Virus record (IMG/VR): IMGVR_UViG_2061766007_000925
Coordinates: 6,821-70,820 of that record
Direction: 5' to 3' (one strand)
DNA: 64,000 bases
From: a virus
Lineage: Duplodnaviria > Caudoviricetes
Every line of letters begins with the position of its first letter. Within the stretch, counting starts at the first letter, position 1. The notes beneath the pieces were generated by a model that ran no database searches, was not told where the DNA came from, and saw only the letters and a program-made list of their open reading frames with translations. Both the position numbers and the translations under genes were made by a program. Below are positions 26,783 through 45,129 of the stretch, in pieces.

Positions 26783-27499
26783 TTAATGCGCCCTAACACC
26801 GGTGAAGTTGAACTGAAATCCTCCGTCCTTAGCGTCGGGAGCAGGTCCAGGTGTAGGGGCAACAATTTCAGGTACAACCATTGGAGGTGTTGTGGGTTGT
26901 TCAGGAGGGGTCGGCTCAGGCTCTTTCTCCACAATGAGAGCGTCGGCGTTCTCAGCGAAATACTTGTCAGCGAAATCGTCTCTTCCGAGGATTTTGCCGT
27001 CTTCCATCTGAAGACCACGCTCAATCATAGACTTAACAAAGTCTCTTCTCGCTGCCTGCGAGGAGAAATTCTTGGTCTGTGCGAACTCTTTAACAGCAAA
27101 CTCATACGCCTGAGCGTCCAACTTCGCCTGATAACTCTTAACGTCATCATCGTACTTGGACTTCATGGCTGACATCTGTGTGTTGAGCTCGGCTAATTTG
27201 GTGGCGTCCTGTCCAGCCTCTTCAAGTTGCTTTTGGAGATTGGCAAGGTCAGTATCACGAGTACCGATTGTGTCGTTCAGAGTCTTAATCTGTTCGTCAC
27301 GACCTGTAATCTCGGCAACCTTTGCTTCAATCTCAGTGTCTTTTGCCTTCAGGTCAGCGTCGTACTTTGACTTGCTGACATACTTTCCATCGGAAAGGTC
27401 AGCGAACTTAGCTCCACCTGCCTTTACAGCAGCCTCGAACTGTTCATAAGTAAGTGTTCCGCCCTCGGCGTTGTCGAAGATGTCTTTAATGTTCATGTT
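26783..27499 (-). CDS. capsid scaffold (Gp20-like)
   Basis: GKYVSKSKY; coiled coil; precedes capsid; GGAG RBS before MNIKD. Confidence 0.85.
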   Translation of the reverse strand, partial: NMNIKDIFDNAEGGTLTYEQFEAAVKAGGAKFADLSDGKYVSKSKYDADLKAKDTEIEAKVAEITGRDEQIKTLNDTIGTRDTDLANLQKQLEEAGQDATKLAELNTQMSAMKSKYDDDVKSYQAKLDAQAYEFAVKEFAQTKNFSSQAARRDFVKSMIERGLQMEDGKILGRDDFADKYFAENADALIVEKEPEPTPPEQPTTPPMVVPEIVAPTPGPAPDAKDGGFQFNFTGVRAH

Positions 27500-27692
27500 T
27501 TGTTCTCCTTTTGACAATCATTTATATCTGTTATTTGTAATTGCGGATTACAGTTTCCGCCTGATTGTGCCGTCTTTAAAGGTCTTCGGCAAGACCCGTG
27601 GAAGCCCTCAATAACACAGGTGGGGTCGCGGACCAGCTTCCCCACCCTGCATGGAGAGCAAAAGTAGACATAAATCCACTTCCACGTCAAAA

Positions 27693-28302: not shown

Positions 28303-28335
28303 AAAAAGAGGAAGGTGATTAGCCTTCCTCTTTTT
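28303..28335. terminator. bidirectional intrinsic terminator at portal stop
   Basis: AAAAAGAGGAAGG-TGATTAG-CCTTCCTCTTTTT. Confidence 0.85.
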
Positions 28336-30160
28336 GTTGACTACCCTTTGACGGAGGTTGTTGTGTTGTCGGTTTCGGCGTTTGCTGTTCTTGTGATGGC
28401 TGTCCTTGTCCCTGTTCGTCGGGTGTGCCGGTGGGTTTACCCTCTCTGATGGCTTGACCCATTTGTGATGACATAGCCATGTTCTTTTCAATCGCCTGTT
28501 GGTTTTCGTCTTGGATTTTGTCAAGGGCAGTTTGTGCCTGTCTTTCGGTCTCTCCGAAGTACCACATACGGACTTCTCTCTTGCTGGTAAGACCTGCCTG
28601 TAAGAGCGTCATCCTCTTATTGAGCTCTGTGTCTATATCGACTAAAATGCTATCATCCCATGTGAACGATACATCATAGAGACCTATCTTCGAGGTATCA
28701 ACCTTGCCATTCTTCAGCACCACATCACCCACGATATTGTAGATGGTGCAATACACATCCATGGCATAGATACAGTCCTTAAGCGCCTTCTCCAACGCCT
28801 TCTGTATCTCAAGGTTGCTCGAATAACTACGCTGTTTGAGGATTTTCAGCTCGGTAGCCGTTCTTGCTTCTGAAGCTACCTCAGCCATTGTTCCCCTCGA
28901 CAATGCAACGACATCCTCAATCCTCATGAGGATATTGTTCAAGCCGTTAATCATGGAAGCGTCTCTGAGAGTCGGTGCATATTGCTGATAGGTGTTTGAC
29001 TCACCCAAATCCACAGGTCTATACAACCTCTTCTGAAGATGCCCCATGACAGTGTGGCTCTGACCTTTGAAGTCCTTTACATCAGTAAGGGCGTCTCGGT
29101 CAATGTCGATTGCAAGCTCGCCTCCTTCGTATTCCCACAACAGACGGGAATACTGTAAGTCGGCTTCCTTGATGAGGGATGTTGCCCTCGCAAATCCACT
29201 TATTCCCAACGGGGAATGAGGGTCTACTGTGTTTGCGTCAGGCATTTTAAAATAGCCAAACAAGAGCTTGTCTACGTTCTTGATGGTTACTTCCTTAGGT
29301 AAATTCTTCCACTCCGGTACACTTGATAACGGAACTTCCTTGCCAAGGCTTGTTACAGCACCCGTCATATAAGACCTGTTGGCGTCAGCGTTGTCCTCAA
29401 AAGCCTGATTGCTGATGATGACATTATTGCCGACCTTGCGATGGTACTCAAGTCGGGTGTAGAGCTTGTCCTTATCCGTCTTGGTCTGAACAAAAGCTAC
29501 CTCTGAGAGGTCTCCGTTACTATCAAAGGCGAACGGGAAAAAGCAATCAGCCTGAATGAAGTCATACCCAAACGAGTATTTATCCTCACCCTCGCCCTGT
29601 TGTTTTGAGTCCATTCCGGCTACGTCCTGTTGCTGGGACTTTATCACGTAAGGCTTGATGATAAGCGAACCTTTTGCGATACCAAACTCAAGCTGAGTGC
29701 GCAACTTCGGTATGAGCTTTTCGTGATACTCGCTGTTCATGAAGTTGGCTCTCTTCTCAGGGCTCTTCGGAACTTCCTGAACTATCGTCTTAGGCTCTCC
29801 ACTTGTCTGAACATTGCCAAACTCATCCGTGGTGGGAGGATAATAGTTAGGATTGTCTGTCTCCTGTGTCTCCTTTGGCGCTGTAATATCGGATTGGAGC
29901 TCAATAACAGCCATCCTCGCCTTCTCGCTTGCAATAAACGCAGGAAGACCGAGGGACACAACCTTTGTGGGGTCGCTGAAATCAGGCTCGTGTAACCATT
30001 CAGCCCTGTCCTCATACATTGCCGTCCACTCGTCGATAGCTGTAGCCATCTTGTTGCTCACGGCGGGCATGATATTAAGTGTCTGTTCTATTGTTGATTT
30101 TAACCCGACCATACGCCTGATTATCTCCTTTATTCTATTCCAAATGGTAGAGAATATCAT
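28319..30160 (-). CDS. portal protein (SPP1/A118-like)
   Basis: YTRLEYH; PLGISGFARA; LLWEYEGGELAIDID; TATELKI; FTWDDSILVD. Confidence 0.92.
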   Translation of the reverse strand: MIFSTIWNRIKEIIRRMVGLKSTIEQTLNIMPAVSNKMATAIDEWTAMYEDRAEWLHEPDFSDPTKVVSLGLPAFIASEKARMAVIELQSDITAPKETQETDNPNYYPPTTDEFGNVQTSGEPKTIVQEVPKSPEKRANFMNSEYHEKLIPKLRTQLEFGIAKGSLIIKPYVIKSQQQDVAGMDSKQQGEGEDKYSFGYDFIQADCFFPFAFDSNGDLSEVAFVQTKTDKDKLYTRLEYHRKVGNNVIISNQAFEDNADANRSYMTGAVTSLGKEVPLSSVPEWKNLPKEVTIKNVDKLLFGYFKMPDANTVDPHSPLGISGFARATSLIKEADLQYSRLLWEYEGGELAIDIDRDALTDVKDFKGQSHTVMGHLQKRLYRPVDLGESNTYQQYAPTLRDASMINGLNNILMRIEDVVALSRGTMAEVASEARTATELKILKQRSYSSNLEIQKALEKALKDCIYAMDVYCTIYNIVGDVVLKNGKVDTSKIGLYDVSFTWDDSILVDIDTELNKRMTLLQAGLTSKREVRMWYFGETERQAQTALDKIQDENQQAIEKNMAMSSQMGQAIREGKPTGTPDEQGQGQPSQEQQTPKPTTQQPPSKGSQQKEEG

Positions 30161-30231: not shown

Positions 30232-30432
30232 TTAAACTTCGTCTGAAACGTATAATGCGGGTGCAGCGTCTACGATTTCCTGAAGCTCTTCGTCGAGCTC
30301 TTCGTCCTCAGGGTCATCGATAATGTCCTGTGCGACTTTAGCCCCGAATACTTCCGTAAGTGCGTTCTTGGCGATTGCGTCAAGCCCGTCATCTTGGATT
30401 GTGATTACGTCATACTTTTCTTTCTGTGCCAT
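30232..30432 (-). CDS. small acidic protein
   Basis: GGGAGG RBS; DDPEDEELDEELQE. Confidence 0.7.
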   Translation of the reverse strand: MAQKEKYDVITIQDDGLDAIAKNALTEVFGAKVAQDIIDDPEDEELDEELQEIVDAAPALYVSDEV

Positions 30433-30453: not shown

Positions 30454-31122
30454 TCAAATTTTCTTTGTAGCTGTGTACTTAATGCCCAGCTTAGCGAGAT
30501 GCTTCTTATACATTCTGTCGAACATCTGAACAGAATACTTACGTGCGAAGTTCTCAGCCTGTTTGGGTGTCAAAGGCTTCCTGTAAATGGTCTTGCCTGT
30601 TGCAGGATTTGTCAGCTTTACCTTTCCCTTGTTCGGTCCAGACTTCAGGGGTGTGGTCGCCTTCTTCAGCGCCGACTTGTATGACGCCTCAAAGTTCTTC
30701 TGTGCGAGCTTTTGGTTCTTGTTTACCCACTTGGACAGCTTCGCTCTGTCAACATTCTGTGTCGCCTGAACAGAGTAAAGGTATCCCTGTGAGGTAACCG
30801 CTCTGAGCTCGTTCAGCTTGGACTTAGCAAATACCTTGAGGTCAGCCATAGAAAGAGTTCCACCGAAAGCCTTATCAGGATGATAGTGGGTAAATGTACC
30901 ATCAACTGTTTTGAGCACACGGCTATCAACGGGAACGAAATGCTTCTCTCCACCATAACCGATGATGGGGTTGCCGTCCTTGTCATAAAGTGCGCCATGC
31001 TCAATGTCAGCCTTGACTTGCCCTGTACGGATTACATTTTCAAAATCGCTGACTCCACCCGTGATAGGCTCAAACTTGATTTTGCTCTTGTCATTAGTAA
31101 CAACAATACCTGATGAACCCAT
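30454..31122 (-). CDS. JAB/MPN-like metallopeptidase-domain protein
   Basis: EHGALYDKDG...FTHYHPDKAFGGTLSMADL (E..HxH..S..D); N-terminus MGSSG. Confidence 0.7.
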   Translation of the reverse strand: MGSSGIVVTNDKSKIKFEPITGGVSDFENVIRTGQVKADIEHGALYDKDGNPIIGYGGEKHFVPVDSRVLKTVDGTFTHYHPDKAFGGTLSMADLKVFAKSKLNELRAVTSQGYLYSVQATQNVDRAKLSKWVNKNQKLAQKNFEASYKSALKKATTPLKSGPNKGKVKLTNPATGKTIYRKPLTPKQAENFARKYSVQMFDRMYKKHLAKLGIKYTATKKI

Positions 31123-31219
31123 AATTACGCTCCTTTTCTTTAAAATTATTATGTAAATTCGTGAAAATCATGAAAATTCTTCCATTTTCACCAAATACAT
31201 CATACACTATTTTTGGGAG

Positions 31220-31879
31220 TTATTCAAGTCTTTTCCCCGTAATTTCCTGAGCGAGCGCCTGAACGATTTCATCATCCTCCCAATATTGAGCTCTTACCCA
31301 CACATCACGCACACGGGGTCCAGTTCCACCCCCGATGAGCTTATCTATGTGGTCAACAAGGTTAGGATTTATGTTCAGCGCCTTATCGTCACGATGAAAC
31401 TCCTTCAGCCATAACCTGAAAGCCCAATCATCATTCGCACCACCCTTCCAATGGTTCTCATAGACGGGATTTCCGATGATGAAGTCTCTCACCCATGTAG
31501 CGCTCTCCCGTGCATACTCATTAGGTATGCGAATACAAGGGAAGGAAAACCACATATCCTTTCGGTCAACTTCCCCCGTATGCCCTGGACCATCGTACAT
31601 TGCGCTACTAAAACCACAAACAAGCCCACTGTCAAATTGCTCAGTGCGCTCCTTAAAATCGTGACAAATACACACGTCATCCTGTAAGTGCCAAGTCCCT
31701 CCATCACCCTCACAGGTGAGGAAGGACTTCAGACAGCTTACGAGGTTACCCTCATGCTTGTCATCCATATATATATTTATATCATCTGAAGATATTCCCT
31801 GTTTCTTCATAGAAGGTAACAGGTAGTCCCTCACGTACCACATTCTTCGTGGTACGGCGTGTATCAGATATTTAGCCAT
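31220..31879 (-). CDS. GT-A-fold glycosyltransferase-like protein
   Basis: GTWHLQDDVCIC acidic motif; NDDWAF; NLVDHID. Confidence 0.6.
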   Translation of the reverse strand: MAKYLIHAVPRRMWYVRDYLLPSMKKQGISSDDINIYMDDKHEGNLVSCLKSFLTCEGDGGTWHLQDDVCICHDFKERTEQFDSGLVCGFSSAMYDGPGHTGEVDRKDMWFSFPCIRIPNEYARESATWVRDFIIGNPVYENHWKGGANDDWAFRLWLKEFHRDDKALNINPNLVDHIDKLIGGGTGPRVRDVWVRAQYWEDDEIVQALAQEITGKRLE

Positions 31880-31888
31880 TTTCTCCTC

Positions 31889-32182
31889 TTAGTCAGCGTA
31901 AACGCAATGTCTCCCTGTTTCAACACGACGAACAGCGACACGTTTCCACTCCCTCTTGTCATTGGAGACCTCAAGGAACTCATCACGATAGTAAACATCG
32001 TAGGTAGCACACATCTCATACTCTCTATCCGAGTAGTAGTAATGCTTCTCCATCTCGCATCTGAGGAAATTCCAAACGCCTAAAGTCTTAATCTTGTCAA
32101 CAATCTCTTCAAGAGTAAAACCCTCGCAAGGAGCAAAGCCCCTGTTCTTCATGATATCAACTGTAAGCTCATCTCTTGTCAT
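31889..32182 (-). CDS. hypothetical protein
   Basis: CAGGAGG RBS. Confidence 0.7.
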   Translation of the reverse strand: MTRDELTVDIMKNRGFAPCEGFTLEEIVDKIKTLGVWNFLRCEMEKHYYYSDREYEMCATYDVYYRDEFLEVSNDKREWKRVAVRRVETGRHCVYAD

Positions 32183-32199
32183 ATCCGTTTCCTCCTGTT

Positions 32200-32565
32200 C
32201 AAAGTGTTCTGAGTGTTAAAAGGCTGGGGCTGACTCGTTTCTCCCACTTTCCATCCCCACTGTGGGCTTTTCCTACTATTTGTTACACGGGTGACAGGTC
32301 TTGTATGGTGGCTCCGTTCCATACTCGAATTTACAGTCTTACTACCGCAACTTGTGCGTATCACCCCATCGTCACTTGCTCTGTGCTATGCGTTAGGGGG
32401 TTTGCATTCCTGCTCTGCGAGTCGTGGTCTCCGCATCCCCGTGGGTTTGGACTTTTCCTTGTCAGTTATCCACTCGTTGCTTGAGGGTCGGATTTTCCTT
32501 GTCCTTTTTACAAGTTTTGTCTTGGGTTTATTCTGGGCTTTTCCTTGCCCTGTTCTCTTGTTGTG
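32200..32565 (-). ncRNA. candidate structured RNA/long leader with repeated AAGGAAAA-loop hairpins
   Basis: Follows a consensus promoter; no RBS-supported ORF; four (C/T)A(A)GGAAAA repeats, three in clear short stems. Confidence 0.45.
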
Positions 32566-32570
32566 AGTAC

Positions 32571-32599
32571 ATCATAACATAGTATATAATGTTTGTCAA
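32571..32599 (-). promoter_or_regulatory. sigma-A promoter with inverted operator
   Basis: TTGACA-AACATTATATACTATGT-TATGAT. Confidence 0.82.
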
Positions 32600-32628
32600 T
32601 ACCTTTTTTAAAACTTTTTTATTTTTTT

Positions 32629-33231
32629 CTATCTCCCATGAATACGGGCGTCTATCTCAGTCTGACTTCCCACTCTCATATAATTATAATAGTACATCGG
32701 CATATCCCAATCAAGGAGTTTGGGCTGTTTACTCATAGCCATCCTGTGAAACGTTACGTCTGAAGACATTGTTTCTCCTGAGAAACGGCAATCCTTGACA
32801 AACTCCCGTCTCCAACATTTGCTCCATGTGGCAATCCAATGCTTTCCTGTCGGACGAAGAGGAGTAGCATATCCCTTCCCCTTAAATATGAAAGAGAAAC
32901 AGAGAACGTCAAGCCCAGGATTTTCCTTGAGCTTTTCATCAATCTGTTCAAGCACATACTCGTGTAACCACCAGTCGTCATCGTCCATGAACATGATATA
33001 CTCACCCTTGGCTCTCTCAAGCCCCCTGTTTCGGGTGAGACCATCTCTTCCAAAACCTACCCTCTCGGTTATTGCACCATACTCCTCAGCAATCTTCTGA
33101 GTATTGTCGGTACAACTGTCACAAATCACTATGAGCTCATAATCCTTAAAGGTCTGAGACTTGATACTGTCAAGCCCCTTCCTTATGAACTCAGCCGAGT
33201 TATGTGCCGGAATGATTATCGAGAAACGCAT
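32629..33231 (-). CDS. glycosyltransferase family 2
   Basis: FSIIIPAHNS...YELIVICDSCTD...RNRGLERAKGEYIMFMDDDDW. Confidence 0.92.
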   Translation of the reverse strand: MRFSIIIPAHNSAEFIRKGLDSIKSQTFKDYELIVICDSCTDNTQKIAEEYGAITERVGFGRDGLTRNRGLERAKGEYIMFMDDDDWWLHEYVLEQIDEKLKENPGLDVLCFSFIFKGKGYATPLRPTGKHWIATWSKCWRREFVKDCRFSGETMSSDVTFHRMAMSKQPKLLDWDMPMYYYNYMRVGSQTEIDARIHGR

Positions 33232-34138
33232 TGTAAAGCCCCCTTACTTCATTTGTATAATTTTCCTTATCCTTCTTAAGCAAAGCCCGATACAAGTCAA
33301 AATCTGCTCGGCAATCCCTATAATGGTCAAGAACATACTGTATCTTATAGATTGCGCCGTTTACAGACTCTTCCTTATACATATCAGGAATGCTGTTGTC
33401 CTCATAGTAACCTGCTGTTCCTGTTATACTCGTAAGAATACAGCATCCTTGGGTGACGGCTTCTCTCGGAAGTCTTTCCCTACCACTAAACACGCCAAAG
33501 TCTATATAGAGCTTGCTCTTCCTGAAAATATCTATCAATTCCTGTCGAGAATACCCTTCAAGAGCTTGAAATTTTATCCCAAGCTCGTTCCGGCATCTTC
33601 CCATCACAAGCTGTTGAAAGTAGGTCATCTTGACTGCGATGGGGTTATACAGAACCACATTCCCTCGCTCATTGTTATCCTCATAAGGTTCAAAGAAATC
33701 ATCGTTGAGACAATCGGAGATTTTAATAGGATTAACCTTGAGTACGTCCCTCAAATGCCACATGGCATACGCTGAGTTGGCTATGTGAATGGTGTCGGGG
33801 CGCTCTAAAAACCTGAGCTCCTTCTTCGGATTATGCCAATAATATACATCCACCCCTTGCCAATTCACAGCAACCTGTTTGTCGGCATATTGAGGTTCTA
33901 CTACCTGATTAGCCCAAATCTCAGGGAAAATCACCACCCCGTCGAAGTCCTTAGGCATTTCCGTGACATAATCACATTCGTACTTGGCGAATTCCTTAGG
34001 CTGAGGGTTGCTCTTCGAGGTAGTATAGAGCACCTTTGCATTTGCACCTACACGATTGAGATAGTGCACAAGATTGTGAATGCCCTCTGTTCCTCCTGTC
34101 GCCAAACCACCAGGACAAAGATGTAAAATATCCATATC
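33200..34138 (-). CDS. GT-B (family 4-like) glycosyltransferase (start MDILHL)
   Basis: CPGGLATGGTEGIH; IFPEIW; LYIDFGVFSGRERLPREAVTQGCCI. Confidence 0.8.
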   Translation of the reverse strand, partial: DMDILHLCPGGLATGGTEGIHNLVHYLNRVGANAKVLYTTSKSNPQPKEFAKYECDYVTEMPKDFDGVVIFPEIWANQVVEPQYADKQVAVNWQGVDVYYWHNPKKELRFLERPDTIHIANSAYAMWHLRDVLKVNPIKISDCLNDDFFEPYEDNNERGNVVLYNPIAVKMTYFQQLVMGRCRNELGIKFQALEGYSRQELIDIFRKSKLYIDFGVFSGRERLPREAVTQGCCILTSITGTAGYYEDNSIPDMYKEESVNGAIYKIQYVLDHYRDCRADFDLYRALLKKDKENYTNEVRGLYNAFLDNHSGT

Positions 34139-35453
34139 AATTTCCCTTTCTCGCCCAATACTTTTGAAGGCTGTAGCGGGTAGCGTCGATGCTGTGATTA
34201 TTCTTATCGGGATAAGCGCTGATAAAGTTTCCATCCTTATCCTGTTCATACTCGTAGGTGCTAAACTCAAAATACGTCTTAGGACACCTTACAGGGTCAA
34301 CATAAATATGATTTAAACCTTGCAACCATTTGATACCGTATCTTACACTTTCTGGACCTTTTTCAGCAGGTCTGATAAATGCCCCGTATGCCTTAAAGTC
34401 AGCTACCGATTTTTCCTCTGCGCTATCAGCAATTACCTGTTCCCGTCGGTCTACTAACTTAAGCTCATCATACAGCTCAGTAAACACCTCTTGATTCCTC
34501 TTTTTAAGAGTATCATATTCTGAGAAAATATACAAGTCAAGTGACTTGGGAACAAAGTGCATACGGACAAATCTGAACGGGTCTTTTGCGAATCCCCAGT
34601 CTATTCCATTGTATATATTATCAAAAGTAGTCCACATAGGAGCTTTACCCTGAGGAGTATCCACAAGCTGAGTCATATCCAAAGGCTCACAGTTAGGAAA
34701 TACATCGCCACCTGTTCCTATAGCGACACCGAGATACTCGTGAATATATGCACGGGGGTTTTTCTTCTTCAGGTCAAGAGCTTCCTCAACAAACTGTGTT
34801 CCTAACCAATCAAGGGGAACATCAAGGAAAGAGTTTCTTACCACAAGGGTACTTGAGCCCTTTCCCTCAAGCTCAGCTTCTCTTGCGTATTCGTTCGCCC
34901 AATTCAGCTTGCTTATCGGAGGGTTGAACGTTCTGAAATCCCAGAATAGCGAACCACCACGCATAGTCGATTGGAGTACCTTACGGATTTCATTCTCGCC
35001 TGAGAATTGGTCAAGCTCCTCCCACCATGTTATGCCAATGTACCCGAAGGGTAATTTAACGGACTTAACCTTGTTAGGGTCATCCATACCCATAAACAAA
35101 ATACGCTGTCCTGTCGGAAGATACACAATCGGCGTGGAGTATGTCTTAGGTATGTGGAATAGACTTTCCACTCCCAATTTATAGATACCCCACACCACCT
35201 GTGAATAAATGCTGTTCTGAATTGTATTACCTACCTTACGAAAACAGATTGCATGAATACCAGGATGGGTCATTATCAATAATGGAATGCAGATACCTCC
35301 GAAGAAGGAGGACTTGGTGCTGCCACGCCCTCCTGCTCCGACATAATGGGTATGCCTGTGTTGCATTACATCATCGAGAATGTCATCATACATGGGTATT
35401 ATGCAATCTCTTAACGGAATTTCAGGTAAACTGATTTGGGTTGTCATCTCCAT
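34137..35453 (-). CDS. terL: terminase large subunit (PBSX family)
   Basis: GGRGSTKS Walker A; WWEEL Walker B; TFNPP; GIDWGFAKDP; NHSIDATRY. Confidence 0.95.
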   Translation of the reverse strand: MEMTTQISLPEIPLRDCIIPMYDDILDDVMQHRHTHYVGAGGRGSTKSSFFGGICIPLLIMTHPGIHAICFRKVGNTIQNSIYSQVVWGIYKLGVESLFHIPKTYSTPIVYLPTGQRILFMGMDDPNKVKSVKLPFGYIGITWWEELDQFSGENEIRKVLQSTMRGGSLFWDFRTFNPPISKLNWANEYAREAELEGKGSSTLVVRNSFLDVPLDWLGTQFVEEALDLKKKNPRAYIHEYLGVAIGTGGDVFPNCEPLDMTQLVDTPQGKAPMWTTFDNIYNGIDWGFAKDPFRFVRMHFVPKSLDLYIFSEYDTLKKRNQEVFTELYDELKLVDRREQVIADSAEEKSVADFKAYGAFIRPAEKGPESVRYGIKWLQGLNHIYVDPVRCPKTYFEFSTYEYEQDKDGNFISAYPDKNNHSIDATRYSLQKYWARKGN

Positions 35454-35472
35454 GCTGAAACCACCTTATGCC

Positions 35473-35601
35473 TTAATAATCCTCACCAACAATCTCTCGG
35501 TACTGCTCTGCTGTGATTACGCCTTTCTTAACGTAAATTCTGAGCATAGCCTTTGTGATTCTTCCTTGCTGATATCTTTCAAGTAATACTTCAAAATTCA
35601 T
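35473..35601 (-). CDS. XkdX-family small protein (not in ORF track)
   Basis: GGAGG RBS; MNFEVLLERYQQGRITKAMLRIYVKKGVITAEQYREIVGEDY. Confidence 0.8.
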   Translation of the reverse strand: MNFEVLLERYQQGRITKAMLRIYVKKGVITAEQYREIVGEDY

Positions 35602-35614
35602 ATCTCGTCCTCCT

Positions 35615-35965
35615 TTACTCTACGTCGGGCATACTTAACACAACCAAGTCCTCAAGAGCATCAGCAATACGTGTCTGGTCAGAAACGCCCTCTTCCATGT
35701 TGTTCCTTGCGTCCTCAAACGCTTCAATAGCGTCAAGGCAGTCCTGCTGAGTAACGCATTCTGAGAAGTCACACCCCTGCTTCTCGTACATTTCCTTGAA
35801 CGATGTGTACTCCATACAGTAAGCGCCATTGATAGCACCACCACCTACAACAATATCAAGGATATTAGCCATCGGATAGCGCTCTATCCACTGTTCGGGT
35901 GTTAATACCTCACCTATGGGGGTAATTACCCTGTCTGTTTTGTTCCAAATTGCATAACGTGACAT
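35615..35965 (-). CDS. fibre-assembly chaperone-like protein preceding XkdX
   Basis: Position; C-term SDQTRIADALEDLV. Confidence 0.55.
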   Translation of the reverse strand: MSRYAIWNKTDRVITPIGEVLTPEQWIERYPMANILDIVVGGGAINGAYCMEYTSFKEMYEKQGCDFSECVTQQDCLDAIEAFEDARNNMEEGVSDQTRIADALEDLVVLSMPDVE

Positions 35966-35986
35966 AATTTATTTTCCTCCTTTATT

Positions 35987-37153
35987 TTATGCTACATCAG
36001 TTACTTCATATACATATACCGCGTCTGAATATGAAGACGTATTCTGACGCCCGCCAGCAACAAGAATTTTATTACCAACTGCTGCCGCAGATGAATTGTA
36101 AAGAACAGTGGGTAGACTTGAAACAGTGTGTGTAAACGAACTATCATAGATATCTAACGTGTCCTGATATACATTATTATTTATTGTACCGCCAGCAAAT
36201 ACTGCACAGCCATCTACTGAACAAGCAGGGAAAGTTGACCTTGCTACGCTAAGAGGTGACGGGTTACTACGGGTAAGAGAACTATTAAATACATCAACTG
36301 TATCAAATAGCTTAGTTCCGTTGGAGCCACCCCCAAACATAGCACAATCATTCAGCGTAGTACCTGGTGCAAACTTTACGTTATTAGTCAGTGTTATTGA
36401 CGTTGACACTTTTGACCCCGAAGTATCATAAACGTCTATTGTGGATACATACGTTGTTGCCGACGATGTTATATTTCTACCTCCAGCGATAAGCAAATAA
36501 TTTCCTGTTCGTGCTCCCCATGACGGATTGCGTGAATAAGATAGACTCGTCAAGCTAGTTACTGTCAACGAGGCATTCATACCATTTACCTGGTTGCGTT
36601 GTCTTACATTCCCACTATCATAATATGCTCCCCCACCAAATATTGCGAAAGAGCTTGACCCCACGCCTGCTGGCCACCAAGAATTAAACGTTAAAGAAAG
36701 AGCTGTTCGTGTTAATGAATTAGAAAAACAATCTACATCGTCATATACAAAAGAGCCTTTATGACCATTAACAAAAACAGCATAATCCCCCACAGAAGCA
36801 AATCCTACGTCAGTCCTTACCCTAGAAAGACTGAGTGACGCCGTGTGGGTGAGAGAGGCATTATACGCGTCTACCTTGTCATACACATTACTTGAACCCG
36901 CATCTCCACCAGCAAACAAAGCATAATCTGCCGTACTAGCCATTCCTGAGTCATGTCGAGCGACCTGTAAATTATCAGCTAACCCATAATAAGACACTTG
37001 TTTACTACCACTACTCCATCCCAGCCTTGCAAGTCCGTTAGGGTCACCCACATATACCTTCTTGATTTTCTTGGGAACATCATTTACGCCGATATACCCC
37101 TTTTTGCCATTTCGGGAAATGTTCTGTACCCCAAATCGTAAACCTTTTGGCAT
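35987..37153 (-). CDS. Kelch-like beta-propeller fibre/adhesin
   Basis: Six repeats of the type ALFAGG..s..VD.YN.SLT..sLS..R. Confidence 0.8.
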   Translation of the reverse strand: MPKGLRFGVQNISRNGKKGYIGVNDVPKKIKKVYVGDPNGLARLGWSSGSKQVSYYGLADNLQVARHDSGMASTADYALFAGGDAGSSNVYDKVDAYNASLTHTASLSLSRVRTDVGFASVGDYAVFVNGHKGSFVYDDVDCFSNSLTRTALSLTFNSWWPAGVGSSSFAIFGGGAYYDSGNVRQRNQVNGMNASLTVTSLTSLSYSRNPSWGARTGNYLLIAGGRNITSSATTYVSTIDVYDTSGSKVSTSITLTNNVKFAPGTTLNDCAMFGGGSNGTKLFDTVDVFNSSLTRSNPSPLSVARSTFPACSVDGCAVFAGGTINNNVYQDTLDIYDSSFTHTVSSLPTVLYNSSAAAVGNKILVAGGRQNTSSYSDAVYVYEVTDVA

Positions 37154-37165
37154 AACAGCACCTCC

Positions 37166-37564
37166 TTATGTCTCATACACGATATAAATATCGCCTGAAG
37201 GGAGTGCATCAACTCCAGGAGTCAAATCAGTCGTGCCTGCATATATGTTTCTTACCTGTTTATCGGCAAGATTAGCAACAGACGTTGCATTAGCGAGCAC
37301 CTTTCCACCGAGTGTTCCTGCTGTTACACCACTTGCCGGAACAGACCCCGCTCCGAACTCTCTCCATCTTCCTGTATCGATATCTACTACATTGCTCAAC
37401 TTCCATTGGTATGTCTTGTCCGTAGCGGCACAGTATGCCAAACAACCATCATACATGGTAGCGTCAGCGACAGCTTTCATATCAGCTAACGTAGCATATT
37501 TAAGCCTGTTATCTAAGGGCTTTGCGCCTTGATAACTAAAGTTATCACCTAATGTTAAACTCAT
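37166..37564 (-). CDS. fibre-associated protein
   Basis: PLDNRLKYATLADM...YDGCLAYCAATDKTYQW. Confidence 0.6.
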   Translation of the reverse strand: MSLTLGDNFSYQGAKPLDNRLKYATLADMKAVADATMYDGCLAYCAATDKTYQWKLSNVVDIDTGRWREFGAGSVPASGVTAGTLGGKVLANATSVANLADKQVRNIYAGTTDLTPGVDALPSGDIYIVYET

Positions 37565-37578
37565 AATCTATCGCCTCC

Positions 37579-38664
37579 TTACGCATAAACCTGTTTGAAC
37601 CCACTCGCTGTTACGAGGTCGGTCAATGTATAGACGTTGTAGCTCACATCGTCCACAGTAACGTTCGTCTTGGTATAGGAACTCAGATACTCGAAGTTGT
37701 TGGCGTCCTTGATGCTTGTAAGGTTTCCGAACGACGCAGGATAACAGTAACATGACCTCTGATTTGAGAGATTGAAGGTGGTTGTTAAAGCCTTTGTGTT
37801 CTTTACGTTCTTGGTGAGTGCGATAATGCCAGCCTTGTCGGTAGGAGCTGTTGCAACAGCGCCATAGTAAGAAGCCATTACGAAGGTGTACGTTGCGCTC
37901 TTCTCTACTGTTGCCGTAGTATTGTCAGACTTCTTATACTCAAGAATGCCCTTAACAGTTGTCGTGTCAGAGATAGCACTCATATCATACGTATATGTGT
38001 TTGTACCATCAACATACGCCTGGGTGTCGAGAAGCGTTGAGCCACTATAGAACTTGATAGATTGAGGTGTTCCTGTTCCCATGCCTGTAATGGTAAGGGT
38101 GAGTGTGGGTGTTACGGATGTTCCGATTTCCTTTACACCACTTCCACTTGCCGTAAAGGTTGTGGTAGGTGCAATCTCGGAAATGAGCAACTTCTGAACA
38201 AACTCGGTAAAGGTTGTGCCCTCGGCAAGTGTTGTTCCACTTGCGATTGCACCGACTGTCGTGTTGCTTGTCACGTCAGCCTCAAGAGAAGCATCCCCAC
38301 CCTGCACAGTTATCTTACCAGCATCCTGTGTAGTGTCGTCAGTGTAAGTAACGATAAGATGCTCCCGCTCGTCAACAGCAACAGACTTGATGCCCTTACC
38401 TGTGGGGCCAGCCGGACCTTCTGGACCTTGTGCTCCATCAGCACCATCCTGTCCATCTTGTCCATCAACACCATTCATCACATCCATCGTACCCGTGTGC
38501 TCAACGTCAGCATTGTCAACCCACAAGAAAGTGACTCTACTGCCCCCTGTGATTGCTGATATTGATTGAATCTGACAGGGTTTTCCTGCCACAGCTCCCA
38601 CACCTTCTACTGTCGCTTTAGTATAACCCATCGCAACAGCGAGTGTTTCAACGTTTATTGCCAT
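37579..38664 (-). CDS. collagen-repeat fibre protein
   Basis: GVDGQDGQDGADGAQGPEGPAGPTG; Thr-rich beta C-terminus. Confidence 0.8.
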   Translation of the reverse strand: MAINVETLAVAMGYTKATVEGVGAVAGKPCQIQSISAITGGSRVTFLWVDNADVEHTGTMDVMNGVDGQDGQDGADGAQGPEGPAGPTGKGIKSVAVDEREHLIVTYTDDTTQDAGKITVQGGDASLEADVTSNTTVGAIASGTTLAEGTTFTEFVQKLLISEIAPTTTFTASGSGVKEIGTSVTPTLTLTITGMGTGTPQSIKFYSGSTLLDTQAYVDGTNTYTYDMSAISDTTTVKGILEYKKSDNTTATVEKSATYTFVMASYYGAVATAPTDKAGIIALTKNVKNTKALTTTFNLSNQRSCYCYPASFGNLTSIKDANNFEYLSSYTKTNVTVDDVSYNVYTLTDLVTASGFKQVYA

Positions 38665-38677
38665 TCAAGTCACCTCC

Positions 38678-38902
38678 TTATCCTACCCAACTCCACGAGC
38701 CGTTTGATTTCATGAACGCAAGTTCTCCTGAGGCTGTCAGGACAGTACTGCTCGCCGCGATGTGCGCTCCCTCAGGTAATCCTATGATTGTGGGAGACCC
38801 ACTCATTTCACTCTTAGTGTCGGCAAAAAGACTTACTTTGTAGATATCGCCTGCACCTCTGTCATTATTCATTACCTTCTGAAGTTCCTGCACTATTACC
38901 AT
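38678..38902 (-). CDS. small virion-associated hypothetical protein
   Basis: LFADTKSEM; GELAFMKSNGSW. Confidence 0.6.
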   Translation of the reverse strand: MVIVQELQKVMNNDRGAGDIYKVSLFADTKSEMSGSPTIIGLPEGAHIAASSTVLTASGELAFMKSNGSWSWVG

Positions 38903-38933
38903 ATCTTACCTCCTTAAGATTGATTGTGTGGGA

Positions 38934-39542
38934 TTATGACTTGCTGTTGCCCTCATACTTCGCAATGTCCTCTTCCGTCATATCACCTTCTCCGAGTGCG
39001 TCCCTTACTGTCTTGGGTCGCTCACTTACTGAAGGTCTCGCCCAATCGACGACAATCTTTATCTCAGGCTGTTCGTTTCCTGCCAACCTCTGAGGTATGT
39101 CAATCTGTCTCTTGGCGAGCTCGACGGCTGCCTTCGTTCTCTCTGACAAAGGCGCTTCAAGTCCGAATTGGTCTTTTATCTCTCCACGCATGACAGCACT
39201 GAAGTAGTTCATTATCTCCGTGGCTGTCGCTATGCTTGCTTCCTTGGCTTCCTGTAGCCGATGGTTGATTTCCGAAGTTATGTAACTTTTGTTCAGCAGG
39301 TCTTGGGCTTTCTGTGCTGCTGCCGATGGACTTACATTTGGGTATGCCGTTAATACGGCTTGTCTTCCATTACCTGTTACACAATACTCATCTATGAACT
39401 TTGCTTCTTGGGGAGTAAGAGCGTGTCCTTCCCATGTACTGAATGATACTCTCTTTGCTTTTTGAGCACTTCGGGTATTGGTGGTCTTTTTCTTTTCCCC
39501 CGCCGTTTTTGGTGTCCTTGGTGTCTTTGCTTTCTCACTCAT
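38934..39542 (-). CDS. terS: terminase small subunit
   Basis: LTPQEAKFIDEY..TGNGRQA...AQDLLNK; IATATEIMNYFSAVMRGE; ERTKAAVELAK. Confidence 0.9.
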   Translation of the reverse strand: MSEKAKTPRTPKTAGEKKKTTNTRSAQKAKRVSFSTWEGHALTPQEAKFIDEYCVTGNGRQAVLTAYPNVSPSAAAQKAQDLLNKSYITSEINHRLQEAKEASIATATEIMNYFSAVMRGEIKDQFGLEAPLSERTKAAVELAKRQIDIPQRLAGNEQPEIKIVVDWARPSVSERPKTVRDALGEGDMTEEDIAKYEGNSKS

Positions 39543-39859
39543 TGTTCTCTTGCTCTCCTTGTCTTCTTGTTACTGTCCATATCGCTTCCCACGTCCGCCT
39601 ACTATGTAGATTTTCTCAAATTTGTAAAAATCAGCCACCCCCTCCCCCGTTTTCCGACAAGCCGTGCCTGTTTTCAAGGGGGTGGGGGTACTCTTAAAGG
39701 AGAAAGATGGGTAAGTCTTTGTTACCACCCCCACCCCGCCATACCCTACCCCTCTTCCCGTCGAGGGCTAAAGTCTCTCGCCCGTGGGGGTCTGATATTT
39801 GGGGTTCTTTCTGATGGGGGCTTAATGTCTTCTCAAGGTGTGGGGGTCTTGGGTCTCTC

Positions 39860-39997
39860 TTACTTGTTCCTCTTTACCCTCTTTACTAAGTCTCTTCCAG
39901 CCGTCTCGCCCTTCTTGGTTGTCTTGCCTTTAGACATCTCACTTGATTGCATTGTGAAACGCTTAGAGGCATTCTTGTCTAAGTCCTTTGTTGCCAT
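39860..39997 (-). CDS. 45-aa basic protein (not in ORF track)
   Basis: AGGAGG RBS; MATKDLDKNASKRFTMQSSEMSKGKTTKKGETAGRDLVKRVKRNK. Confidence 0.65.
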   Translation of the reverse strand: MATKDLDKNASKRFTMQSSEMSKGKTTKKGETAGRDLVKRVKRNK

Positions 39998-40009
39998 TGG
40001 TGTACCTCC

Positions 40010-40774
40010 TTAGATATAGCACTTGATGACTAATTGCTTGATTTTCTTTCCCGCCGCCTTGGAGTAATTCTCTTCCACACTGAACTCTCCTGTAAGGTTG
40101 TATTTTGAGCCCCTTGCTCCGATAATCTCGTGTTCGGGCTTGTTGTTTGTGACGATTGCCTTTGAGCCCTCTCTCATGACAAAATCGAGCCTTACAGGGG
40201 AACTATCATAGGTGGAGTGCTCAGGGAGATATGTGATTGAAGTATATCCGGGATGAGTGTAATCGGTCTCTTTCAGCCTTGTGATAAAATCCTGTTTCGC
40301 TACGCTGTCGCTCTGTAAGGTGTTCATAAGGGATTGGATATTAGAGTTGTTGATTGTATCCATTCCGAGCATACGCCCTAAAGTAGCTCCGTCGGCGTAT
40401 TTGTATCCCATAACAGCCTGTGAGAGTGGTTTCATGCCGTTGTCCATCTTGGATATATCATTCTGAATATCATACTTGTCATATCCCGCCGAGGTTGTCC
40501 ATGTGCTCTGAGGCGAGCCTACCTTGCCTGTGGCAAGGAAATAATTGATATCAAAGGATTTGGAACAGTTGACGTACATCTTCTCGTTTGAGCCCTTCGG
40601 GAGATTGTACTTTCCAGCTTCGTCTCCTGTCTGTCCCATTGCGCTCTGTAACGCCTTAACCTGTGCGTCCTGTTCGCTGTCGGTCATCTTGGTAAAATCG
40701 AGCCCTGTAATCTTCGGGGTCTCTTCCTTAGGGGGCAATTTAGCTACGCCCTTGGTTGCTCCTGTGCTTCCCAT
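40010..40774 (-). CDS. VIP2-like ADP-ribosyltransferase (variant)
   Basis: MDNGMKPLSQAVMGYKY; GYTSIT; NKPEHEIIGARGSKY (ExE); N-terminus MGSTG. Confidence 0.75.
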   Translation of the reverse strand: MGSTGATKGVAKLPPKEETPKITGLDFTKMTDSEQDAQVKALQSAMGQTGDEAGKYNLPKGSNEKMYVNCSKSFDINYFLATGKVGSPQSTWTTSAGYDKYDIQNDISKMDNGMKPLSQAVMGYKYADGATLGRMLGMDTINNSNIQSLMNTLQSDSVAKQDFITRLKETDYTHPGYTSITYLPEHSTYDSSPVRLDFVMREGSKAIVTNNKPEHEIIGARGSKYNLTGEFSVEENYSKAAGKKIKQLVIKCYI

Positions 40775-40789
40775 GTAATCGCCCTCCTA

Positions 40790-41530
40790 TCATGTGTTCT
40801 TCTTCTTGAACTTTTGGTCTTTCGCCTGACCTACCCACGTAGCTGTTACATGGACATATCCATCCTTACCCTTGTGAACACTATTCGGGTCAAACTTGAA
40901 GACAGAATTGCTATTGTGTAGGTACTCGCCCTCACCATCATTGCCTCCCTTATGAGAGACATATCCTCCGCCACCTTTGTTGGCAGGAGTTGTAATGTCA
41001 ATCCACACGCCATGTTTGTTGGCGTATGTTCCGATGGGAATAGTGGTTGAAGACAAGAAACCATTTACCTGTATCAATCCATCGGAAGTCTCATTCTTCA
41101 GGTAGCTCACAACCTGTTCGGGGGTCATGCTTTGATACTCGGAAGCACCGAAAATCTGAAAATCACACTGTCTTACTGTGTGGATTGCCTTGTGAAGCTC
41201 GAACTTATTCAGTGCCTCATACAGGTTGGCTGCTTTTTGCTTCATAGAAGCTGTCATCTGGTCCCACGGCGTCTTATACAGGTCATTGTTCATGTTGATA
41301 TATCCCGAACCTGTATAATAGTCGATTGCGCTCTCCTGTGCCGGTGTCAGACCTTTCTCCCACTCAGCCATATTTGACATCTTGGGATTATTGAACCACT
41401 TAACAGTGCTACTTACGTTACTTGTGAAGTTTGTTACGCCGTCTACAACCTGCTCTCCTGTGTCAGGTGCTTTGATATACTCAGATTCCTGTATCGGCTT
41501 AGCACTGATTTTCTTTCCTGAGCTTCCCAT
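40790..41530 (-). CDS. VIP2-like ADP-ribosyltransferase (R-S-ExE)
   Basis: AIDYYTGSGYINMN; HTVRQ; GFLSST; GEGEYL; N-terminus MGSSG. Confidence 0.85.
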   Translation of the reverse strand: MGSSGKKISAKPIQESEYIKAPDTGEQVVDGVTNFTSNVSSTVKWFNNPKMSNMAEWEKGLTPAQESAIDYYTGSGYINMNNDLYKTPWDQMTASMKQKAANLYEALNKFELHKAIHTVRQCDFQIFGASEYQSMTPEQVVSYLKNETSDGLIQVNGFLSSTTIPIGTYANKHGVWIDITTPANKGGGGYVSHKGGNDGEGEYLHNSNSVFKFDPNSVHKGKDGYVHVTATWVGQAKDQKFKKKNT

Positions 41531-41619
41531 GGTCTCCTCCTTATTTCTCCTTGGTAGGTTTGTTTACGAGCTCAATCTTGCCCTTAATAGGACACCCGAC
41601 AATCCCACACGTGAGCTTT

Positions 41620-42723
41620 TTATTCTCTTTCGGGGGCTGTCTTTTTACGTTCTTTTTTGGTGTTTTTGACATTACCTTGCTCCTCCTTTTCTCTCATCTT
41701 TTTCTTTATATCTTCCCACATAGGATTATCTGTGGGTAACTCCCATCCGTTTATCTCATACCACATATCTCGGAGATAAAGCAGTATTTGGATTTGCGAG
41801 GTTGACTTAAACAGCTCTACAGCTTGCGTCTTTTGTGTCCCCTCATCATAGACAGCCTGTTTCAACTGATAGATAGTCACGGGTCTGTCCTGTTGCTGTG
41901 AGTAGAACTGAGACGTGGAGTACAATATCTTGTACCCCTTGGCGTTGATTGCACTTTGCAATTTGTGTATGCTAACTGTATTACTTGCCATCTTTGAGTA
42001 TAGCACAGCCTGAGCGCTGTGTAAACCTCCTTTTCTATATGCACTTTAGGCACGGAGATTTCTCCCCGTGCCTGTTCGGACTTATTTAATTGTTTCAGGA
42101 TTTATCTCCTGAATAAGCGCTCATGAGGGGTCGTGCAATGTGCAAATCTATTTACAAGCACGGGCTCTTTGGTCTCCTTATCAAACGTCACCTTCAGAAC
42201 GTTATCGAAGTTTTCCTCAAGCGCTACTATAAGGTTATGTCGGGTCGTACATAAGTTTAACTCAAACCCTTCAAGAATGTCCGTAGTCCTTGCTGCAACC
42301 TTCTCATAAAGTCTGTTAGCTATTGTAAGTTTTCTAAGGGTCAGAAGTGTTTCACTCATTGTCATCTTTGCCATATCTCTCACCCCCTTAAAGACTATAG
42401 GTGAGAGAGGTTGAAGTCTCATCAATAAGCTCAAAGCTCTCACAGAAGTTGGTAGCCATCAGCTCACGGGCTCTTTCCTTACGCTCCTGAGTACCAAAGG
42501 TCATAACCTTAATTCCAACGTACTCTTCAGGATTGCTCGCTGTAATAAGCCTTACAGTGGTCATTCTTGCGTCGTCAAATGCTTTTCTTACGCAAGGAAG
42601 AATGTTTGCGAGCTTGCTCATCTTGGAAAGAATGATTGCCTTTTCTTCAGGGGTAACTGTCTTTGTGCTCTTCATTGTGGTGTCCTCCATGTGGTGTGTA
42701 TTTGTGTTCCTTACAATAAACAT
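41620..42723 (-). CDS. hypothetical proteins (41620-about 41991, 42102-42375, 42388-about 42690)
   Basis: RBS-preceded ORFs downstream of the 42722-42750 promoter. Confidence 0.6.
42048..42073 (-). terminator. hairpin, possible terminator
   Basis: AGGCACGG...CCGTGCCT inverted repeat; weak U-tract. Confidence 0.4.
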
Positions 42724-44147: not shown

Positions 44148-44176
44148 ATTATATACTATTTTTACCGATTTTTCAA
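44148..44176 (-). promoter_or_regulatory. sigma-A promoter overlapping the MTase stop
   Basis: TTGAAA-17-TATAAT. Confidence 0.65.
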
Positions 44177-45129
44177 GTACCTTCGGTATATGCGCCGAAC
44201 TTCTCTTCAATGTTCTTCGGGTTACCCTTAAAGAACACAAGCACGTTTTGGTGATGTCTCCCTACCTTTCGGGATTGCTCGAAATACTTAGGACAACGCA
44301 CCCCAAGGCTCATTATCCTGTTCTCAAGTATCATCTCGTTATAGTACAGGAAACCAGCGTCCTGAAACGCTCTTATCGTGTCGGGGACAAATCCATACAT
44401 AATCCCCTTGTTATCCCGTATCTCCTCTACCACGATTACAGCAAAGGTGTCATCCTTCAATACGTTATAGCTCGCTGATATAATTGCTCTATATCTCTCC
44501 AAGAACTCCTGATACGTTCTCTGATTACTTAAATCCCGTCCGTCCTCTGAGTAAACTTCAAGATTGTAATACGGGGGACAAGCAAGAAACATATCAAAAG
44601 TATCATCAGCCAAAGCCATCGGAATGTAAGTATAGCTATCACCGCACTTCCACACGGGCGTCCCGAACAGCTCATCACCATAAATCTCAGATATCTTTTC
44701 CCAATTTTCGACGTTGGCTTCCACCTGTGTCGGGTTCAGGTCTACACCCAAGTAGTCCCTCCCAAGTATCGCTGAGACAGCTCCTCGAACGTGTCCTCCA
44801 GCAAAAGGGTCAAATATCAGGTCACCCTGTCGGCTAAACCACCTGACAAGTATCTCACATAAGAACGGGTCAAATGTACTGATATTCCCATTGCGCTCTA
44901 AGCCCTTATAGCCAGGGTCATAATCGAACTTGTTGATATACGGCGTATTCGACTTCGCCGTAATGTTCCTGACATTCTCAGCCCTGTTCTTCAGTATATG
45001 CTCCCACTCATTCCTCTTCTTCAGCCACTCACCCACCTGTGAGTCCAAGATGGAAAACGGGGGAACTAAATACCTTTCCCTTAACGATTTAACGGGCAAT
45101 TTTAATCTTTCTTGCGTAAATAAAGGCAT
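44173..45129 (-). CDS. amino-type (N6A/N4C) DNA methyltransferase-like protein
   Basis: IFDPFAGG motif I; GVDL; CPPYY motif IV; HQNVLVFFKG. Confidence 0.85.
   Translation of the reverse strand: MPLFTQERLKLPVKSLRERYLVPPFSILDSQVGEWLKKRNEWEHILKNRAENVRNITAKSNTPYINKFDYDPGYKGLERNGNISTFDPFLCEILVRWFSRQGDLIFDPFAGGHVRGAVSAILGRDYLGVDLNPTQVEANVENWEKISEIYGDELFGTPVWKCGDSYTYIPMALADDTFDMFLACPPYYNLEVYSEDGRDLSNQRTYQEFLERYRAIISASYNVLKDDTFAVIVVEEIRDNKGIMYGFVPDTIRAFQDAGFLYYNEMILENRIMSLGVRCPKYFEQSRKVGRHHQNVLVFFKGNPKNIEEKFGAYTEGT

Follow-up and report, generated by a model that had tools for sequence, protein, structure and literature searches.

Why should three enzymes of one uncultured phage, two of one fold and one of another, begin with the same short run of residues? 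The question is raised by a stretch of 64,000 nt (the window) of the IMG/VR virus record IMGVR_UViG_2061766007_000925, which has a length of 70,820 bp and is rated complete by CheckV. Nearly all genes of the window lie on the minus strand, and three minus-strand open reading frames (ORFs) start with M-G-S-[ST]-G. One of them encodes a JAB/JAMM-fold protein, the other two encode C3-like ADP-ribosyltransferases (ARTs). We tentatively read this start tag as an N-terminal address label, by which the enzymes may be loaded into the procapsid and co-ejected with the DNA. The tagged ORFs are:

30454–31122, minus strand: JAB/JAMM-fold protein, 222 amino acids (aa), start MGSSG (tag codons 31108–31122)
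40010–40774, minus strand: ART-2, 254 aa, start MGSTG (tag codons 40760–40774)
40790–41530, minus strand: ART-1, 246 aa, start MGSSG (tag codons 41516–41530)

A first-pass annotation of the DNA had reported an MGSxG tag on these three proteins, and its ORFs, starts and codons were recovered unchanged (atg ggt tca tca ggt for the JAB protein and atg gga agc tca gga for ART-1); ART-2 starts with atg gga agc aca gga. Each ORF is preceded by a Shine-Dalgarno-like site and by no more than one in-frame start. The annotation had also stated that no other ORF starts in this way, which proved correct not only for the window but for the whole 70,820-bp record. Based on the genome's own amino-acid composition, 0.004 M-G-S-[ST]-G starts were expected by chance among 119 ORFs (Poisson P(≥3) ~1e-8), so that the pattern is not a product of chance. 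GS[ST]G strings occur five times in the proteome, three of them at residues 2–5.

Conservation of the tag was assessed in 116 homologues (17 of ART-1, 54 of the JAB protein and 45 of ART-2) retrieved by a search of 5.8 billion proteins. An MG start was present in 105 of them, and both Gly2 and Gly5 were kept in 96/116, down to about 35% identity, with residues 6–25 varying freely. In the ART-1 family, 15/17 members start with MG and 13/17 have Gly5; the corresponding values for the JAB family are 51/54 and 50/54, and Gly5 is found in 76–93% of each family. The entropy at positions 2 and 5 amounted to 0.4–1.1 bits, compared to 1.8–3.4 bits at positions 6–12. The tag, whose recurrence in homologues the annotation had proposed as a check, is thus kept across all three families. 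In 28 non-identical tagged genes, Ser3 was encoded by AGY 17 times and by TCN eight times, and all four Gly codons were used. Since the codon families vary freely, selection must act on the protein and not on the RNA; RNA-level selection was rejected on this ground, and the earlier claim of protein-level selection holds, given the mixed Ser and Gly codons and the low entropy at Gly2 and Gly5. An N-myristoylation signal (M-G-x-x-x-[ST]) was likewise rejected: the three window proteins carry I, K or A as their sixth residue, and in the families this residue is mostly I, K, A or N; bacteria are not known to possess an N-myristoyltransferase. A codon-specific scan of IMG/VR (Shine-Dalgarno sequence plus MGSTG) gave 35 matches, about half of them short chance ORFs, and says little about prevalence. 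In the ART-2 alignment, the tag is fixed at the N-terminus and followed by a stretch of about 8 to 85 residues rich in Gly, Ser, Thr and Pro before the domain begins. An AlphaFold (AF2) model of ART-2 shows residues 1–20 as disordered, with a predicted local distance difference test score (pLDDT) below 50 for residues 3–16, and the predicted N-terminal layout is one that fits a tethered targeting peptide.

The tag is not confined to these families. When about 20 kb around the JAB gene were taken from 15 related contigs, scanned for tagged starts and subjected to all-against-all BLAST clustering, the tagged proteins fell into at least ten clusters, comprising the ART-1 type, the ART-2 type, the JAB type with its paralogues, two families of about 275 aa, a ParB-C-like protein, an ART singleton and three orphans. 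The ParB C-terminal-domain protein matches phrog_2579 (1e-15) and the ART singleton (L015:13850) matches PF03496, whereas the only clue to one of the ~275-aa families was an ART-like score of 0.94 by ESM Atlas language-model features, which is a lead only, one family having been tried. As many as five tagged starts were found in one phage (L015). In the window genome and three complete relatives (~320 kb in all), all genuine tagged starts lie between the last replication genes and the portal gene, and no tag was found on capsid, scaffold, portal, tail or replication proteins. The pattern scan of the three relatives added one further ART-like tagged gene in the same zone; two other pattern matches were discounted, one being an internal site in a long ORF and the other a 10-codon ORF. 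Such confinement to accessory enzymes encoded next to terminase and portal agrees with a role as virion cargo.

A second N-terminal header of about 20 residues, with the core W-I-T-V-N-G-x-H-I-P-I and a variant W-I-T-x-x-G-R-H-x-F-I, was seen in seven related contigs (L003, L006, L008, L010, L012, L013 and L014; for instance, at L010:4548–9289 and L008:13779–19142). It starts many unrelated proteins of the packaging zone, two of which are PF03496 ARTs. The window lacks this header, which corresponds to no Pfam family.

The residue that the tag places at the N-terminus can be anticipated. Methionine aminopeptidase removes Met before Gly, and the mature tagged proteins should therefore start with G-S-x-G. 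The first-pass annotation had proposed a free-Gly N-terminal tag, and independent evidence for a free glycine comes from leaders that abut the glycines in relatives. One tagged-type protein (L012:7985) carries a nine-residue leader ending in LQLF, immediately followed by G-S-T-G, and its homologue (L013:8031) starts with MGSTG. Similarly, the ART-2 homologue P0091 has a leader ending in LQFF before GGRG, and P0094 starts with MGGRG. More distant members were obtained with a JAB-family profile search against 1.84 billion representatives, which gave 1118 matches, and start patterns were read in 108 short proteins of the top list. Forty-seven of these 108 start with M-G-[GSAT]-x-G (30 of the 47 with MGGRG), and a further pattern, a leader ending in Q[LF][FL], was present in 16/108, with GG immediately after it in all 16. 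These leaders match the cleavage motif known for ribosomal protein L27, MLxx(D/N)LQ(F/L)F, in which the protease Prp cuts after the last Phe (PMC9405229). As the leaders abut the glycines, cleavage at this point would give the same N-terminus as methionine removal. The G-S-[ST]-G of the window thus appears to be a local form of a wider G-[GS]-x-G end that is apparently needed at a free N-terminus. An MLxx(D/N)LQ(F/L)F leader was found neither in the three window proteins nor elsewhere in the window or the whole genome.

The nature of the three enzymes was established by several routes. ART-1 matches PF03496 (9.6e-16). ART-2 itself has no Pfam match; PF03496 is present in most of its homologues, and its AF2 model (pLDDT 90.8) was matched by Foldseek to the C3-type ADP-ribosyltransferases Plx2a, Certhrax and C3bot (E 6e-10). 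The Y-T-S and E-H-E motifs of ART-2 are conserved in the family alignment. The R-S-E ADP-ribosyltransferase fold (PF03496, C3-like) is accordingly present in ART-1 by profile and in ART-2 by fold. The Arg of the R-S-E triad is a Lys (G-Y-K-Y) in ART-2 and its 12 closest homologues and is kept as Arg in more distant ones. For the JAB protein, Pfam and phrog profile searches gave no family match. Residues E41, H79, H81, S91 and D94 (E..HxH..S..D) are invariant in 36 sequences, and the AF2 model (pLDDT 88.7), which Foldseek alone failed to place, was placed by an exhaustive structural aligner. Its seven best structural matches, with modest Z scores of 5.2–6.8, are all JAMM/MPN+ or RadC proteins and include PfJAMM1 (top match, Z 6.8), Sst2, Cap3, Rpn11, RadC and AfJAMM, and the protein has the metal site and fold of the JAB/JAMM (MPN+) group. 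The labels 'JAB' and 'ART' are justified because motif, profile and structural matches agree. All three tagged proteins are single-domain (222–254 aa), with no covalent fusion to MuF or to another virion or carrier domain.

The surroundings of the tagged genes are made up of the following features:

26783–27517, minus strand: scaffolding protein (PF06810, 8.6e-15), candidate docking partner
28319–30160, minus strand: portal protein (phrog_533, 2.6e-102; PF05133), candidate docking partner
30232–30432, minus strand: acidic ORF, 66 aa, net charge −16, directly 3' of the JAB gene
34137–35453, minus strand: large terminase subunit TerL (PF04466, 1.9e-32; PF17288)
38934–39542, minus strand: small terminase subunit TerS (PF03592, 4.2e-17)
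39860–39997, minus strand: basic ORF, 45 aa, net charge +9, directly 3' of ART-2
41541–41672, minus strand: basic ORF, 43 aa, net charge +10, directly upstream of ART-1
41620–42006, minus strand: phrog_33130 gene (9e-13), product of about 100–128 aa

In the order of transcription on the minus strand, the replication genes (the last ones encoding clamp-loader subunits, a PP-loop/QueC-like protein and an N6/N4 methylase) are followed by the 128-aa phrog_33130 gene and the basic 43-aa ORF. Then come ART-1, ART-2, the basic 45-aa ORF, TerS, collagen-like and kelch-repeat genes and TerL, and finally the glycosyltransferase genes, the JAB gene, the acidic 66-aa ORF and the genes for portal, scaffold and capsid. 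All three tagged genes are therefore located among TerS, TerL and portal, in the packaging/head region to which the first-pass annotation had assigned them, and the tiny charged ORFs that it had noted at 30232–30432 and 39860–39997 are indeed acidic and basic, respectively. Such ORFs recur. In all 11 related loci inspected, the JAB gene is succeeded by a small ORF with an acidic product (net charge between −5 and −18), most of these products sharing a C-terminal motif; ORFs of 38–48 aa lie directly after tagged genes in L003, L010, L012 and L013, and small basic ORFs occupy the position upstream of a tagged gene, as does the 43-aa ORF of the window, in L006, L008 and L010. A phrog_33130-type gene with the same N-terminal motif directly precedes the tagged array in L003, L006, L008, L010 and L012–L015. 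In the window, an extended −10 promoter-like site lies ahead of it (42025–41997, minus strand), and its product may be regarded as a candidate late-operon regulator.

Other genes of this region were recorded as well. Inserted genes interrupt the packaging module within 31220–38902 (minus strand): the gap between TerS and TerL holds genes for a collagen-like protein, a 132-aa protein and a kelch-repeat protein and an XkdX-like ORF, and two glycosyltransferase-like and two uncharacterised genes separate TerL from JAB and portal. Where the replication module ends (44173–46159, minus strand), the PP-loop/QueC-like gene (PF06508, 2e-7) adjoins the N6/N4 DNA methylase-like gene (PF01555, 3e-16); relatives carry an extra radical-SAM (S-adenosylmethionine) gene, and the QueC-like and methylase genes may form a DNA-modification cassette. 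One relative has a large terminase with an intein (PF14890), followed by an HNH gene (L010:12104–13807), and an ORF of 47–50 aa starting with M-P-V-[HR]-K-V-G-K-D recurs just before the portal gene (L008:14753, L010:18163, L012:4812 and L014:18417).

The first-pass annotation had linked the tag to phages without MuF domains. Neither MuF1 (PF04233) nor MuF2 (PF06152) was detected in the complete record (MuF3 and MuF4, for which there is no public profile, were not searched for), and no MuF gene follows the portal gene in the window genome. The proposed link nevertheless failed among distant relatives, since a MuF-bearing siphophage carries an MGGRG-tagged JAB homologue. In this 38-kb phage (L023), a ParB_N-DUF4417 gene is followed by the tagged JAB homologue, a 38-aa ORF, a 129-aa ORF (possibly the small terminase subunit), TerL, portal, MuF (PF04233), scaffold and capsid. 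In three distant contexts (L018, L023 and L025), the gene immediately ahead of the tagged JAB homologue encodes DUF4417 or ParB_N-DUF4417; DUF4417 as an obligatory partner was rejected, because it is absent from the window genome and its close relatives. In searches of GenBank phages with the DNA of the region and the three proteins, the only match was a weak one of ART-2 to Streptococcus phage Javan444, in which ART-2 resembles the ART domain of a MuF2-ART fusion; no tag motif is present at the fusion junction. A prophage copy of the JAB family was not found in GTDB genomes.

Distant JAB homologues also occur inside proteins of up to 2455 aa. In two of these (P0133 and P0176), a K-G-G-x-G-S-G header that resembles the MGGRGS starts precedes every module, at a spacing of about 200 aa. 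In its longer form, K-G-G-x-G-S-G-[IH]-x-G-H, it is repeated four to five times among long JAB-bearing proteins (P0133, P0176, P0137, P0154, P0238 and P0260), and the same set of polyvalent-like proteins has a further header, F-N-P-Y-H-D-x-x-G-R-F, at N-termini and between modules.

How, then, might the tag work? The procapsid-loading reading draws on the late-module position of the genes, the restriction of the tag to accessory enzymes, the tether architecture and the precedents of the T4 targeting sequence, MuF fusions and encapsulin peptides. Following established biochemistry, host methionine aminopeptidase would remove the Met and leave a mature end, G-S-[ST]-G, with a free alpha-amine. 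As the comparison with relatives suggests, the free Gly-x-x-Gly end would be the key feature, exposed in some relatives when host Prp cuts an L27-type leader after ..LQ[LF]F. The free end might then be recognised by some component of the procapsid (candidates are the portal, the scaffold and the inner face of the capsid), and in the ARTs it would sit on a flexible tether whose length varies. A few copies of the three enzymes would thus be enclosed, ejected with the DNA and able to act on the next host before phage gene expression, and the tiny charged ORFs beside the tagged genes could encode proteins that inhibit or chaperone their neighbours while these are still in the producing cell. No prohead protease of the Peptidase_S78 or ClpP type and no Prp was found in the complete 70.8-kb record, with positive controls (the T4 gp21 family was not searched). 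A prohead-protease processing site was rejected as an explanation of the motif, since no such protease was recognised and no conserved cut site follows the tag. As no prohead protease is recognisable, the label is probably retained, in contrast to the targeting sequence of T4.

Several observations weigh against procapsid loading. The JAB tag runs directly into a predicted beta-strand in the AF2 model, with no tether, and four conserved residues is very few for a specific docking signal. The JAB-fold gene and its small ORF are constantly paired ahead of the terminase, in phages as distant as L018, L023 and L025 and also where the phage is small and MuF-bearing, and for this reason the JAB protein may be a morphogenetic or DNA-handling factor instead of swappable cargo. 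When the three window proteins and four distant tagged homologues were compared with GenBank phages by tblastn, no tagged homologue was detected in cultured phages, all matches being weak and partial. In prophage Javan386, GGRG is internal, at residue 67, after an N-terminal segment of 66 residues. Finally, neighbouring enzymes of related phages bear the W-I-T header, and a phage with two classes of address would be expected to have two readers or two destinations for them.

An unlikely but substantial alternative is that the free Gly-x-x-Gly end serves as a site for N-terminal modification, stability control or inhibition in the producing cell (for example, by acylation, conjugation to a carboxylate, or as a degradation or anti-degradation signal), where the enzymes would act late instead of travelling in the virion. 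The evidence for a free glycine suits any reader of an alpha-amine and not the capsid alone, the small charged partner ORFs that tend to accompany tagged genes suggest that activity is controlled in the producer, and the JAB protein is folded like the JAMM isopeptidases, the type of enzyme that reverses Gly-linked conjugates. However, the neighbouring genes include no recognisable transferase, ligase or ubiquitin-like gene, the tag is confined to genes within the packaging module, and ARTs made late would have little time in the producing cell.

The internal GGRG of Javan386 and the headers before the modules of long relatives raise the possibility that the tag descends from a module boundary, that is, from the downstream side of a hinge or cleavage site in an ancestral polyvalent or MuF-fused cargo, and was kept with little function of its own after the modules had split. 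The very long JAB-bearing proteins and the regular K-G-G-x-G-S-G headers of P0133 and P0176 speak for this origin, which we nonetheless consider improbable: a relic would decay, yet Gly2 and Gly5 are held in more than 100 sequences while the next 20 residues are randomised, the leaders are placed exactly at the glycines in 16/16 cases, and the MuF2-ART junction of Javan444 lacks such a motif. It is hardly credible that the first codons were selected for translation initiation or efficient Met removal, and hence for expression level, with no role as a signal. Although Gly at position 2 guarantees Met removal and small residues after the start are common, the free codon variation excludes RNA-level selection, the abundant capsid, scaffold and portal proteins do without the tag, and both the conservation of Gly5 and the leader-cleaved variants would be left unexplained.

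If the address-label reading is extended beyond this genome, a free N-terminal Gly-x-x-Gly (G-S-T-G or G-G-R-G) could be a general cargo-address code of siphophages of Bacillota-type hosts, loading swappable effectors for co-injection. Its end would be exposed by three routes, namely Met removal, a host Prp cut of an L27-mimicking leader and perhaps a cut at the K-GGxGSG headers. This generalisation is conceivable, albeit doubtful. A loading signal of this kind would supply a sequence rule to find proteins that gut and rumen Bacillota phages inject ahead of gene expression, which would include anti-defence and host-takeover enzymes, mostly without an assigned function, and it would provide a four-residue handle to load chosen or foreign proteins into the capsids of laboratory phages. 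It would also mean that a minimal peptide can replace a fused carrier such as MuF and that a host ribosomal-protein protease has been borrowed to expose it. Should the proteins be destined for somewhere other than the capsid, so strict a conservation of a free-glycine end on unrelated enzymes would still point to a novel reader of protein N-termini.

The tag was finally compared with known systems. It is not mentioned in the work on polyvalent proteins (PMC5512222), MuF toxins (PMC5576092) or Prp (PMC9405229), nor in the further full-text literature searched, which largely excluded subscription journals; within this literature, its designation as undescribed by the first-pass annotation stands. 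The same search found no description of a Prp-type leader on accessory enzymes. In the Prp-processed leaders of Bacillota pro-L27 and of the capsid and scaffold proteins of S. aureus phage 80alpha (PMC9405229, PMC5744158), the likeness lies in the ..(N/D)LQ(F/L)F of the relatives, whose cut would expose the glycines; by contrast, the window proteins have no leader, and the known substrates expose Ala-Ser/His-Lys-Lys instead of Gly-x-x-Gly. Encapsulin cargo-loading peptides (PMC8346489) resemble the tag in being short, Gly-containing and borne on a variable flexible tether by unrelated enzymes, and they dock inside an HK97-fold shell, but most of them are C-terminal with another consensus, and the comparison is an analogy only. 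MuF-fused ARTs have been proposed as virion cargo (PMC5576092). With MuF toxins and polyvalent proteins (PMC5576092, PMC5512222), the tagged enzymes share the ART, JAB/RadC-like and ParB-like domains beside portal and terminase genes, the proposed delivery with the DNA and the small downstream ORFs, which are read as immunity proteins in those systems; there, however, MuF or another virion domain is covalently fused to the effector and carries it, whereas the enzymes described here are free-standing and bear a four-residue label instead.

Phage T4 packages Alt and other internal proteins by means of an N-terminal targeting sequence of about 10 residues, the capsid targeting sequence (CTS), which the prohead protease gp21 cleaves off. 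PMC11690488 employs this term. The tag resembles the CTS of IPI-III and Alt in being a short N-terminal peptide common to unrelated proteins (here JAB-fold, ART-fold and others) that the phage produces along with its head; in both cases the proposed role is to deliver proteins with the DNA, an ART among them. The differences are that the tag has four conserved residues and apparently needs a free N-terminus, and that no prohead protease (S78, ClpP) was recognised alongside it. By analogy, the tag would be akin to the N-terminal targeting of phage internal proteins, its new element being a minimal motif that depends on a free end.

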